A stretch of DNA of 64,000 bases from Leptolyngbyaceae cyanobacterium (GTDB lineage Bacteria; Cyanobacteriota; Cyanobacteriia; Phormidesmidales; Phormidesmidaceae), in contig CBDHHL010000056.1 in NCBI GenBank assembly GCA_965263355.1, forward strand, positions 2,080,001 to 2,144,000, given 5' to 3'. A model generated the notes under the pieces. The model did not search any database. It had not been told where the DNA came from and saw nothing but the letters and a program-made list of their open reading frames with translations. Each line of letters begins with the position of its first letter. The stretch's first letter is position 1. The position numbers and the translations under genes are program-made. Below are positions 57,841-63,070 of this stretch, one piece after another.

Positions 57841-59520
57841 TTAAATCTGCACTGCATTACCGCTCATGCCTTGGAACTTAAACTGTCCGACCTCTTCACG
57901 GTATGTGGTCTTGACATCGCGCAGCATGCTAATCGCTAGTTTTTCACCCAGCAAATTACCACCCGTCTCAATCCCCATCTCCGGTCCAAAGGCAGTTCCA
58001 TCGGTGCGCCAATGCATACCAGCGCCATCACGAAATAGCGTAATATTCGCAATCAGCTTATTTAGCTCACCATGGATAGTCAGTTTTGTCCCCTGCAAGT
58101 CTTTTAGACCCTGACCGCTATCAGTGGGCACTTGTGGGCAAGGAAACTCACCATCAGCAAAAAAGGCCTTAGCCACCGTTGCCGCCGCTGCAATAAAGAC
58201 AGAGTGACCACCAGGATAAGCGGGGTGAGTAGGAGACCCCTCAGGGAAAGCCATCGGCAACAACCAGGTACCATCTTGATCACCACGCTTTTGAGCCAGG
58301 TTTTGCTGCTTATTGTGCTCAAAAATATAGTCAAGCACCGCTGTCTGCCGCCAAACATGCGCACCCTTACCAAACAAAGAAATAAATTTCTCATCATCGA
58401 ATGGGTTGTTTGGAGAATTCCCCAAAACACCACGCCGGAATAGCTCCAGACGCTGCGCATAGACTTCTGGTCGCAACTGGCGATGTACACACCATTTTTG
58501 GAACCAGGCATGCTTAAGACCATAAACACCGGCTAAACCAGCCTGAATGGTAATATCTGGACCACCCAAGCTACCAAATGCTTCAGCAGTTTCAATTGCT
58601 CCGCTAACATAGGGACTTGCCTGAGAAATAGCTGCCCCCAGTCCCAGAAGCATAATGGTGGACCAAAGACCCGACTGATGGGGAAAGTCAATATGTACCC
58701 ACTGCCCAGCATCACGCAATGTGGTGATATAGCGCTCACCTTCAAGAATATCGGTACCCGTGGGGTCAATATCGCCATTATTAACCCGTTGCCAGGTATC
58801 TAGATCGGTCATGTAATCTAGACATGGCTTAGGATAACGCTGCAGCTAACGAATCGGCTGATTACCAAAGTCAAAATCTTGCAACAGAAACTGTGACACG
58901 TGGGGACCCACATCACACCCTTCGTAAGGACCGCGGAAAATAGTATCCGGTGTGCAAACAAAGCCAAACTCCTGCTCAAACCCCAGGTTATTAAGGTCTT
59001 TACAAGCGGTTGCGATCAGCCCATTCGTGGCATATTCATCAAAGGGAATATCACGACATAGGGCCATCCAGTAGCGCTCGACCATATCAACTGCCGTATT
59101 ACGACTCGCAAATTTAGGAGCCACTGCCATGCGAGCACCATTGGAGTCATTACCAATCAGCTGAAAAGAATAGGTATTGAGAGGGTTAGCCAGCAAGCGG
59201 TTACCGCCACCAAGCTGCACATCATTAAATGCCTCTTGAGTATCTTCATCAATGGCCCGCAATAACGAATCAAACGATGACGGTTTTACAAACCCTTTGG
59301 CATCATGCTTCAGAGCTTTTGTAAACGATGCAAATCCAGGAAAGCCAATCTTTTCAAATCGTTCTTCGTCGCCATTGATTGGAGGAACAGCAACAACAAA
59401 ATCATCGGCTGCACTAGCCCGAACTTTTCGACGAATTTCATTGGCTGCCCGCCGACGCATTCTAAAATCTCTCCGATCTTTAGGATCTGATTCCTGCGGA
59501 ATTGGTGAATTACCTTTCAT
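57841..59520 (-). pseudogene. Vanadium-dependent haloperoxidase interrupted by in-frame TAG at 58846-58848
   Basis: Both ORFs share one frame (QPIR*LQRYPKPCLDYMTD); YWMALCRDIPF, AWFQKWCVHRQLRPE, HPAYPGGH, RDGAGMHW. Confidence 0.85.
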
Positions 59521-60131: not shown

Positions 60132-60197
60132 GGAAAAGCATAATACGTAATACTTTATCTACACAGAAAACATCAAACCCTTACCGCCTTGCATCCC

Positions 60198-61097
60198 ATG
60201 ACTGACTCCCCATCTACCCAAACCCAATTCTGGACCTGGCAAGGCTTCCCTATCCGTTACCAAACTGCAGGCACGCAAGGTCCCCCCCTACTCCTAATCC
60301 ATGGTTTCGGAGCCCACAGCGACCACTGGCGCAAAAACCTACCTGACCTCGGCCAAACCCATCGAGTCTACGCCATCGACCTCATCGGCTACGGCCAGTC
60401 CGCTAAACCCACCCCTGGCAAACCCATTAACTACACCTTCGAAACCTGGGGCCAACAAATTATCGACTTTTGCCAAGAAATCATTGGAGAACCCACCTTC
60501 CTCGTTGGCAACTCCATCGGTTGCATTGTCGCCATGCAAGCCGCCACCATGGCACCAGACCAAGTCAATGGCCTTGTTATCCTTGACTGTTCTTTACGTC
60601 TGCTCCACGATCGCAAACGAGCGACCCTCCCCTGGTACCGCAGCGCACCCACCCCCCTCATTCAGGCCATCCTCAACTACAAACCTGTTGGCAAATTCTT
60701 CTTCTCTCGCCTAGCCAAACCCAACACACTCAAAAATATCCTGCGACAGGCCTACGGTCGCAAAGAAGCTGTCACCGACGAACTCATCGAACTCCTACTT
60801 GCCCCAGCCTGTGATCCAAATGCAGTTGATGTATTTGTCGCCTTTATCAGCTATTCCCAAGGACCACTCCCGGAAGATCTTTTACCCCAACTCACCTGTC
60901 CAGTACTAATGCTGTGGGGCGAAGCCGACCCATGGGAACCCATTGAGCTAGGTCGGGAACTCAGTAGGTATAACATCGTCGAACAATTCATACCACTCGC
61001 AGGAGTGGGCCACTGCCCCCAGGATGAAGCACCCGAACTGGTCAATCCATTGATTAGCGAGTGGGTGTACAGGATGGCGGCAACCAGCTTAGTTTAA
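60198..61097 (+). CDS. Alpha/beta fold hydrolase
   Basis: IHGFGA, DLIGYGQS, GNSIG, GHCPQDE. Confidence 0.93.
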   Translation: MTDSPSTQTQFWTWQGFPIRYQTAGTQGPPLLLIHGFGAHSDHWRKNLPDLGQTHRVYAIDLIGYGQSAKPTPGKPINYTFETWGQQIIDFCQEIIGEPTFLVGNSIGCIVAMQAATMAPDQVNGLVILDCSLRLLHDRKRATLPWYRSAPTPLIQAILNYKPVGKFFFSRLAKPNTLKNILRQAYGRKEAVTDELIELLLAPACDPNAVDVFVAFISYSQGPLPEDLLPQLTCPVLMLWGEADPWEPIELGRELSRYNIVEQFIPLAGVGHCPQDEAPELVNPLISEWVYRMAATSLV

Positions 61098-61196: not shown

Positions 61197-62207
61197 AAAA
61201 AAGTACCCTGGAAACACAAAAGTGGATCACAGGGTAGGGGCAACAGTTAAACGCTTGTGCTATTCATAGCCTCGCCTAAGAAAACGGTTAAACGCCTCAT
61301 TGTGTGTCGGTTTTTAGAGTGTCCATAATGCCATCCATAGACTTGCTTCCAGGGAGGGCATATGCGTTACATGGACATTTTTTCTTACTCTCAACAACAG
61401 TCCGTTTTAGCGCATACACTACAGCGTCATACAATATTGCACTGATGCATATCGTTAGTACAGCCCAATAGCTACTCACATTCAATAAAAAAGTACCTCG
61501 CGAACGCAGAGTTCACGAGGTCAGGGCAACAGTTAAACGCTTGTACTGTTATTAGGATTGCCTCAAAGAAAATCTACGCAGTTGGCCCTATGCCATTTCC
61601 TGTAGTGTCCATAATTTATTTACAGCCAAGGGGTTAGCCAAGTGAGCCATGTTACGCTTATGGTGCATCTACCACTGACGATTCGCCAATTTAAAGGTTG
61701 TACACAATCACTGTATAATTCCTGTTTAGTTGACGCGAATCGTCTCAAAAATTCGACCAATTCCCTTTAAATGAAAATATCCTTACAAATCTAAGCAAGC
61801 TCTTAGTAAGTCTCAGCCTTAATTGATAGTAAGGACAACAGTTAAACACTTGTGATTGAATATCACCGCCTAACTTTGAATAAAAAAATACCCCGCGAAC
61901 GTACAGTTCACGAGGTAGGGGCAACAGTTAAACGCTTGTGCTATTCGTAGAATCGCTCAAAAAACTTATTAAATACTATTTTTTGTGACGCTTTCTAGAA
62001 CGTCCATAGGTTTATCGGGTTGAGAATTACGACTATAAAAAGTTGGCGCGTTCACATCTACACTTAATGACCTTTAAATAAAAAAGTACCCCGCGAACGT
62101 ACAGTTCACGAGGTAGGGGCAACAGTTAAACGCTTGTGCTATTCGTAGAATCGCTCAAAAAAGGTCGTACGCCATTTGGCGTATGCCGATTCTTAGATCG
62201 TCCATAA
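61197..62207 (-). ncRNA. Tandem array of putative small RNA genes (4 full units and 1 partial)
   Basis: Core GGGCAACAGTTAAACGCTTGT on + at 61238, 61524, 61919 and 62117, variant at 61833; minus-strand terminator hairpins with T runs; GTCCATA 83 nt from each full core. Confidence 0.7.
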
Positions 62208-62657
62208 TTCAATTACAGCTTGAGCGGACACCATCAGCGTTGTCATTAACTCTGTCGTTACCCGACTCAGACCTAGCCCCATCGCCGATAGGATGAGGAT
62301 TGTGACAAAGGCTAAACTGTTCCCAACATCGCGAATCAATAATTCCACCCGCAGTAATAGCGACGCAGCCAACATCACTAGGAAGTAAATAAAAATCTGA
62401 ATCCAGGATACGACAACGACAGCTAGAGAGGCGATTATTAAGGCCATCACCGTATAACCAAAATCGGACTGAAATCCAAGTAAAAAGAAGTTACGTAAAG
62501 GCTGCCAAATAATGGTGAGGAAGGCTGATTCTATGACTGCATATCCTAAGGCTAGCCACCAGATAAAATCTGAACTATGACGAGCATGTAAAAAAGCCCC
62601 AAACCCCATATAGGCTAGTAGTAATAGAAGTGACGATAACCAGGGCAACTTTCTCAT
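62193..62657 (-). CDS. Hypothetical membrane protein
   Basis: MRKLPWLSSLLLLLAY start after GAGGA; multiple hydrophobic helices. Confidence 0.75.
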   Translation of the reverse strand: MRKLPWLSSLLLLLAYMGFGAFLHARHSSDFIWWLALGYAVIESAFLTIIWQPLRNFFLLGFQSDFGYTVMALIIASLAVVVVSWIQIFIYFLVMLAASLLLRVELLIRDVGNSLAFVTILILSAMGLGLSRVTTELMTTLMVSAQAVIELWTI

Positions 62658-62665
62658 GAGTATCC

Positions 62666-63070
62666 TCAAAGATTGGTAGAAATTGCCTGAACCGGACAAG
62701 TGGGGATACATTGCTCGCAAACAATGCATTGGGCTCGGTCAAAAACCAGTTTGAAGCTTTCTGGATCTAGACGTAAAGCTCCCGTAGGGCAAACCCCTGT
62801 ACATAGGCCACAGTGAACACATAGGTCTTCGTCAATGAGGATCTCCCGACTAGATAGGGATACACCAATTCCCTGGTTACGCATCCATTCAATCGCTTCA
62901 TCGAGCTGATCGATATCGCCAGACAGCTCAATGACCCCTTTACCAACCTGATTCGGTGCCACCTGCGCACGAATGATATTGGCTGCCACATTAAAATCCT
63001 TGGCTAGCCGATAGGTGATTGGCATATTCACCGTCTGTTTTGGAAATGTCAAGGTAACGCGCTTTTTCAT
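62666..63070 (-). CDS. NIL domain / 2x[4Fe-4S] ferredoxin
   Basis: NVAANIIRA; CVHCGLCTGVCP and CIVCEQCIPTCP. Confidence 0.92.
   Translation of the reverse strand: MKKRVTLTFPKQTVNMPITYRLAKDFNVAANIIRAQVAPNQVGKGVIELSGDIDQLDEAIEWMRNQGIGVSLSSREILIDEDLCVHCGLCTGVCPTGALRLDPESFKLVFDRAQCIVCEQCIPTCPVQAISTNL

Follow-up and report, generated by a model that had tools for sequence, protein, structure and literature searches.

An array of short repeated units in the window

The window, by which we mean the whole 64-kb stretch of DNA analysed, contains an array of short repeated units in the gap between a convergent alpha/beta hydrolase gene and a same-strand gene pair encoding a membrane protein and a NIL-domain ferredoxin. 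Its features are listed below by position, with the RNAs and their promoter elements given as predictions.

60189..61097, plus strand: convergent neighbour, alpha/beta hydrolase; a syntenic marker outside the RNA system
61197..61261, minus strand: predicted sRNA copy B2, 65 nt; seed 61243-61255; inner stem differs from the other copies
61303..61326, minus strand: putative upstream regulator site of copy B2, score 29.1; predicted -10 box 61268-61273
61487..61547, minus strand: predicted sRNA copy A2, 61 nt; seed 61529-61541; hairpin 61495-61521
61589..61612, minus strand: putative upstream regulator site of copy A2, score 18.2; predicted -10 box 61554-61559
61662..61674, minus strand: 13 nt in exact agreement with the 5' end of the NsiR1 consensus of Rfam; part of a conserved spacer segment
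61833..61856, minus strand: relic partial copy, core with two mismatches; without upstream site and without terminator
61882..61942, minus strand: predicted sRNA copy B1, 61 nt; seed 61924-61936; hairpin 61889-61917
61984..62007, minus strand: putative upstream regulator site of copy B1, score 28.0; predicted -10 box 61949-61954
62080..62140, minus strand: predicted sRNA copy A1, 61 nt; predicted +1 at 62140; seed 62122-62134; terminator hairpin 62087-62115, then a U-run
62147-62152, minus strand: predicted -10 box of copy A1
62182..62205, minus strand: putative upstream regulator site of copy A1 (about -65 to -42), score 25.2; overlaps the end of the upstream membrane-protein ORF
62193..63070, minus strand: upstream neighbours, a 178-aa hydrophobic protein and a NIL-domain 2x[4Fe-4S] ferredoxin; syntenic markers

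Exact 21-nt cores start on the plus strand at 61238, 61524, 61919 and 62117, with a two-mismatch copy at 61833, just where the first-pass annotation of this DNA had placed them; besides these five, no core was found in the 64-kb window at up to five mismatches. The description of the units in that annotation also proved accurate. Over exactly 76 nt (61889/62087) the last two units are identical, and each of the four reads on the minus strand as a hairpin followed by a U-run, which a consensus scan flags in three of them. The unit with core 61524 has a U-A pair where those with cores 61919 and 62117 have U-G, and the unit with core 61238 combines the same core with a different inner stem. The claim that the DNA between the units is largely unrelated has to be given up: each complete unit is preceded by a conserved 24-bp upstream site and a -10 box, promoter features absent from the earlier annotation, and the spacer at 61620-61770 holds more blocks conserved in relatives. 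The upstream-site matrix scores 18-29 in the four complete copies against a background maximum of 11.7 (224 windows), and -4.5 at the 61833 relic. A seed relic occurs at the same place in the related locus L004.

The proteins flanking the array share 78-99% identity with their counterparts at Leptothoe, Adonisia and Leptolyngbya PCC 7375-type loci. The 178-aa hydrophobic protein (62193-62729, minus strand) has no Pfam match and is kept beside the NIL ferredoxin in 59 of 73 loci. Within the promoter spacer of the first copy lies a 6-bp hairpin with a T-run (62168-62183, minus strand), which may mark the transcription end of the upstream ferredoxin/membrane-gene operon. Elsewhere in the window, two adjoining minus-strand ORFs of 323 and 224 aa (57841-59520) lack a Pfam match; we take them to resemble the two parts of a vanadium-dependent haloperoxidase gene interrupted by a stop codon or frameshift.

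Anatomy of the predicted promoter, RNA and terminator

A complete unit comprises the 24-bp upstream site (about -65 to -42), a -10 box, a predicted RNA of 61-65 nt in the window, an invariant seed (AGCGUUUAACUGU) and a covarying terminator. Among the 112 copies with full upstream sequence, position -11 is A in 110, position -7 is T in 111 and position -14 is G in 109, and on the strength of this promoter signature the predicted +1 was placed at the A of AGCACAAG. The distance from the upstream site to this position is 41-43 nt in nearly all lineages read. L579 (G167) provides a natural promoter-spacing variant, in which about 30 nt have been lost between the upstream site and the RNA.

The 85 distinct RNAs are 57-65 nt long. 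Conservation of their 5' part is to some extent built in, since the core served as the query, whereas the terminator lay outside it. In the terminator alignment 93.3% of cells are paired and eight of ten pairs show two-sided changes; none of 500 shuffles reached this level of covariation, a type of score that relatedness can inflate, and slid structures paired in 34-53%. The minus strand folds better than the plus strand in three of the four units of the window (-18.5, -19.8 and -19.7 against -16.1, -15.4 and -15.4 kcal/mol), the exception being the unit with core 61238 (-18.0 against -20.3 kcal/mol). The seed is unchanged in 16 diverse copies, contains the near-palindrome GTTWAAC and is predicted to be mostly unpaired (mean 0.65-0.69). 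The single-stranded seed surmised at first pass is retained here, although the functional seed appears to be the 13-nt AGCGUUUAACUGU rather than the full 21-nt core. A weak 5' helix obtained with RNAalifold was set aside.

As expected of a trans-acting base-pairing sRNA, the unit has its own promoter and intrinsic terminator and no ORF, as predicted from conservation, together with a conserved and probably accessible seed complementary to the leader of a trans-encoded mRNA, which is described below.

Comparison with known RNAs

A comparison with Rfam 15, the check proposed in the first-pass annotation, gave no match near a gathering score for the units or their relatives (window region, five distant homologous loci and three close arrays). 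The array is organised like that of NsiR1 (RF02399) from Nostoc sp. PCC 7120, which the accessible part of PMC9045159 describes as tandem copies of about 60 nt with individual promoters and terminators, repressing leaders by pairing. The two differ in sequence, with the best NsiR1 scores being 15.9 bits in the window and 21.0 bits in L020, both in the spacer, against a cut-off of 39. They also differ in setting: NsiR1 lies upstream of hetF and the family cassette away from it, and the family is mostly single-copy (51 of 71 loci) with a different upstream site. The DIF1 motif, TCCGGA, occurs in 1 of 115 upstream regions of the family.

The spacer segment that contains the NsiR1-like block (61620-61770, minus strand) is kept in four relatives (L004, L020, L052 and L067), and at the corresponding position L036 carries a seed relic. 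The segment shows neither a DIF1 motif nor a clear terminator; it may represent another small transcript or a unit in decay.

Yfr1 offers another parallel, being a short RNA with a conserved unpaired motif, a terminator and targets concerned with the envelope and peptidoglycan, the last of these only predicted for the family; the accessible part of PMC6974561 names mraY, murC, amiC2 and conR as regulated by Yfr1. The family differs in its predicted target and in its conserved activator-type upstream site. No Rfam match connects the two, and the Yfr1 motif is found in 0 of 115 family copies. Further afield, sibling sRNAs such as Vibrio Qrr1-5 and the envelope-stress sRNAs MicA, RybB and MicL offer parallels to the predicted family: redundant copies with a common seed behind distinct promoters under one activator, and a 5' seed combined with a terminator and directed at envelope mRNAs. 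Qrr and MicA/RybB/MicL sRNAs depend on sigma54/LuxO or sigmaE, and on Hfq. A sequence relation between any of them and the family was not found in Rfam.

The seed and terminator strings are absent from the 327 predicted Nostoc PCC 7120 sRNAs in the accessible part of PMC4734099, a comparison that a diverged PCC 7120 allele could escape, and the accessible part of the PMC3610870 supplement has no match to the RNA. PMC12873609, in the part available, reports 409 novel conserved structures near orthologous genes, among which the family terminator might be included. Searching full-text literature for the seed strings gave two irrelevant matches. No description of the RNA was found in the literature searched, which largely excludes subscription journals, and there is a good chance that the RNA family is hitherto undescribed. 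On these comparisons the family resembles sibling base-pairing sRNAs, with the organisation of NsiR1 and predicted envelope targets of the Yfr1 type, and belongs to neither.

Distribution and evolution of the array

An exact scan of the GTDB collection with a 19-nt core returned 76 loci, four of which were dropped as chance matches lying in unrelated contexts without the 5' bases and terminator. The 72 real loci, from records titled Phormidesmis, Leptothoe, Adonisia, Leptolyngbya, Vasconcelosia or unclassified cyanobacteria, are syntenic and belong to Phormidesmidales genomes. Typical neighbours are the alpha/beta hydrolase, the membrane protein, the NIL ferredoxin and a thioredoxin; with the window counted in, the hydrolase is the downstream neighbour in 68 of 73 loci, and in 59 the membrane gene is found on the upstream side. 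Copy number in this lineage, taken from 71 loci some of which end at contig edges, is one in 51, two in six, three in six and four in eight, with one copy in Phormidesmis and two to four in Leptothoe and Adonisia. The tandem organisation stressed at first pass is therefore right for the window and wrong as a general form, the array being the Leptothoe/Adonisia-type form of a mostly single-copy family.

Weaker covariance-model matches elsewhere in the phylum keep the upstream site, the 13-nt seed and the terminator. A pattern of seed plus T-run matched 43 of 401 phylum genomes, with few matches in reversed controls. Of these 43 genomes, 29 proved on reading to have the upstream site and another has the same RNA; the remaining matches seem due to chance or to coding sequence. 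The upstream site, used on its own as the query, brought to light a variant with the seed AGUGCUUAACUGUC. A promoter-plus-RNA model then matched 30 of 80 further genomes, 29 of them at E 3.3e-10 or better and the thirtieth unconvincingly. A variant is present in each of the 26 genomes searched from a group that we label Nostocales-like by its gene order (a divergent hemB-like gene and a nearby release factor 3) and its proteins. In L551-L575, from this group, about 25 nt separate the start of the hemB-like gene from the upstream site, and the promoters of gene and cassette therefore overlap. Altogether the RNA and its upstream site are present in at least 58 of the 401 sampled phylum genomes, the remainder having been searched in part; in 40 genomes, mostly earlier negatives, laxer filters gave a top match of 21.4 bits.

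The gene contexts of the cassette bear on whether it is a gene at all. It could instead be a cis element, a tandem duplication of the conserved 3' end of the upstream ferredoxin/membrane-protein operon together with its terminator, and in Phormidesmidales, as in several other genomes, it does follow that operon immediately and on the same strand. Yet no complete copy lacks an upstream site and -10 box of its own, and in other lineages the cassette has relocated intact to unrelated contexts, including a head-to-head arrangement with a divergent gene in most Nostocales-like genomes, so we consider such an origin improbable. A mobile or selfish repeat (REP, MITE or CRISPR-like) or a type I antitoxin is more improbable still. 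Tandem copies with a hairpin would suit a mobile element, as would the IS transposase pair (HTH + DDE_3; L049:4143-5260) that interrupts a four-copy array in Leptothoe kymatousa. Against this, synteny is fixed, 51 of 71 loci have a single copy, and none of 120 pattern matches read in viral contigs resembled the cassette. The dispersed copies by which the first-pass annotation would have recognised a mobile repeat are not seen in the PCC 7375 genome, where the covariance model matches the four array copies at one locus only. ORF clusters around the loci include no conserved small ORF or cas-like neighbour.

We conclude that the cassette is real and selected. That it constitutes an independent gene for an RNA of about 60 nt, as proposed at first pass, is very probable given the per-copy promoters, the terminator covariation, the relocation of the cassette and the absence of an Rfam match, and together its members likely form a new, widespread family of base-pairing cyanobacterial sRNAs.

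Two promoter types alternate in four-copy arrays. Across seven such arrays, similarity between copies at the same position in different genomes exceeds that between copies within a genome over -66 to -17 (0.74 against 0.65), whereas within-genome similarity is the higher over -16 to -1 (0.80 against 0.70). This suggests an old duplication whose promoters have been preserved, with gene conversion acting over the RNA part. Such conversion would account for the 76-nt identity of the last two units.

A predicted target in the leader of a LysM-M23 gene

Exact complements of the seed in six genomes pointed to a single pair of orthologues, a LysM gene of G050 and its counterpart in G083. A protein search of 30 genomes found 11 orthologues, all 11 of which have the seed complement in the leader just before AGGAGG and a TTG start; later leaders were gathered by the pattern of Shine-Dalgarno (SD) sequence and start or by protein, independently of the seed. 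The gene encodes two LysM domains and an M23 domain and is named MepM or NlpD by the sources. The complementary site lies 4-10 nt upstream of its SD. In LysM-M23 leaders (e.g. L405, L407, L409 and L415) the stretch from SD to start is very strongly conserved and forms a hairpin that covers the TTG start; about 50 nt upstream of the SD there is a CRP-box-like block.

RNA and leader are both known in 44 genomes, where the cognate duplex ranks in the top 1% among 637 control leaders in 39 and in the top 5% in 41, figures to be read knowing that 16 of these genomes are near-identical and that G050 and G083 are not independent because the target was found through their seed match. The pairing falls outside the top 5% in G023, G169 and G393. 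Control leaders were drawn from the fetched loci after removal of viral, chance and seed-selected loci. Where the leader site has at most two changes, the substitutions are A>G (eight), C>T (three) and T>C (two, both terminal), with no G>A, a count that leaves out the more heavily changed sites of G003, which is degenerate, and of the 1-nt-deletion variant in the 16-genome group. At the family-level loci there are 13 A>G and one T>C. The substitutions are thus mostly G-U compatible. Complementarity in the flanks tracks the sRNA of the same lineage (UGUUG with CAACA; UGUCCUUG with CAAGGACA), and in the Nostocales-like group a U-A pair of the seed/leader duplex has been swapped to C-G. Cognate assignment in 20 lineages was compared with 20,000 permutations, giving p=0.0002, or 0.0005 without the two discovery genomes, with kinship ignored in both. 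The cognate sRNA is the best partner for only three of the 20 leaders, and in one lineage group the leader pairs better with a foreign sRNA. The RNA of the window is predicted to pair with 12 family leaders at -20.5 to -24.5 kcal/mol.

In eight genomes with no detected sRNA the site is absent from five and kept in three (G005, G098 and G086); a predicted diverged sRNA was not found in these three or in G347 and G319. Single-genome seed matches include a response regulator in G002, a cupredoxin and others, and a pattern of seed complement plus ATG was not above control in 41 family genomes.

The first-pass annotation had proposed either mRNA pairing or protein titration. Of these, the conserved complementary site in the LysM-M23 leader favours pairing, and we consider it probable that the sRNA pairs with this leader. 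Were the RNA instead mainly to bind or titrate a protein, the leader site would reflect a second, opposite-strand or DNA-level use, such as a GTTWAAC transcription-factor site at +1 to +13 of the cassette and in the nlpD leader. In favour of this, the seed is an invariant, near-palindromic stretch that is short and single-stranded, the leader site persists in three genomes where no sRNA was detected, and titrating RNAs are typically amplified in copy. We nevertheless judge titration unlikely, since the leader site varies almost only by wobble-compatible changes while the seed is invariant, the complementarity reaches past the core in a lineage-matched manner, and each RNA has one motif only.

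As to the outcome of pairing, the SD of the LysM-M23 gene is predicted to be mostly paired, and over 18 leaders keeping the complementary site unpaired takes the mean accessibility of the SD from 0.35 to 0.36 and that of the start codon from 0.55 to 0.56. This unchanged SD accessibility gives no support to a structural switch at the nlpD SD. Binding 4-10 nt before an SD usually prevents 30S loading. Because the site lies at this distance from a mostly paired SD and blocking it leaves the SD closed, repression by occlusion is favoured over an activating switch, and we infer, with some reserve as to direction, that the sRNA represses the LysM-M23 leader. An sRNA that pairs with the leader could also activate or stabilise the mRNA, for instance if it protected a site of nuclease attack or changed the fold of the leader. 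The complementary site is clear of the SD, which is itself largely paired, and the accessible part of PMC6974561 gives a precedent in Yfr1 and amiC2, a wall amidase mRNA activated by a cyanobacterial sRNA. Set against the expected block to 30S loading and the unaltered accessibility of SD and start codon, activation seems rather unlikely, if slightly less so than titration.

A second candidate target is a GHL10 gene similar to that for the C. difficile wall protein Cwp19, presumably a hydrolase. A seed complement lies shortly before its start in five of seven orthologues, in one lineage only; for one of the two orthologues lacking it, the start that was read is misplaced. By this complementarity the GHL10 wall hydrolase is a candidate lineage-limited target. 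In the GHL10 leader (L136:1485-1500, minus strand; L715-L720) a CTCTCACAC stretch directly follows the seed complement; we take it to resemble the Yfr1 motif.

The upstream site and its regulator

The upstream site admits two readings, an imperfect palindrome and an imperfect direct repeat of 11 bp. In 115 sRNA promoters, the NtcA, CRP and NrrA motifs were each found in none. The HLR1 (RpaB) and Rre1 motifs, taken from the accessible part of PMC13421787, were found in none and one, respectively. RpaA was rejected as a candidate by eye, the top matches in the accessible part of the PMC10805033 table being AT-rich and unlike the upstream site.

At a score of at least 10, the site precedes the S41 Ctp protease gene in 12 of 26 orthologues, a count in which the best matches of G001-G003 are paralogues and the true orthologue was missed, and a Gfo/Idh/MocA gene in 8 of 24, compared with 1 of 224 background windows. 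In three genomes it also precedes a gene that is presumably plsC-like. At the same score it was found in 1 of 24 htrA/degP promoters, and it was seen in 0 of 13 nlpD promoter rows. The matrix also matches inside coding sequence, and genome-wide pattern counts of the site were not clearly above reversed controls. In L526 (G393; minus strand, 158-493) three copies of the site precede one gene, which we take to encode sucrose synthase, and in G002 (L084) one strong site precedes glycogen phosphorylase.

Proposed mechanism and significance

Sequence comparison supplied the cassette anatomy, conservation, synteny, terminator covariation and complementary leader site from which the following mechanism is proposed. 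Each copy would be transcribed from its predicted +1, with activation by a factor binding at -65 to -42. The seed would form a duplex with the leader in vivo just upstream of the SD, and translation would be repressed through occlusion of the 30S footprint or of a standby site before the structured SD. Physiologically, septal wall cutting would be damped. In Leptothoe/Adonisia-type genomes, four copies with position-specific promoters and a homogenised RNA would provide a higher dose and several inputs. On balance, we favour reading the locus as a four-copy trans-acting sRNA gene whose 13-nt seed would pair with the LysM-M23 leader before the SD and repress translation.

Ctp proteases are linked to the turnover of wall hydrolases in E. 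coli and Pseudomonas. There is some chance that the sRNA is the post-transcriptional arm of a hitherto undescribed cyanobacterial cell-wall regulon, in which one activator would turn on both the Ctp (S41) protease and the sRNA and these would jointly shut down the LysM-M23 and GHL10 hydrolases. As the connection between Ctp and wall hydrolases is drawn from E. coli and Pseudomonas, we offer this regulon tentatively, as a hypothesis.

To our knowledge, few sRNAs are conserved across cyanobacterial orders, and fewer still have a conserved target. The occurrence of a variant in every Nostocales-like genome searched means that the family can probably be tested in standard laboratory strains. The family exposes a predicted upstream binding site that fits none of the regulators compared, and it provides an example of sRNA gene amplification in which the promoters appear to have stayed distinct while the RNA part was homogenised. 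If the regulon hypothesis is true, filamentous cyanobacteria would have a dedicated switch on septal wall cutting, and with it on cell separation, nanopores and fragmentation, and in Leptothoe and Adonisia this switch would have been amplified to four differently wired promoters.
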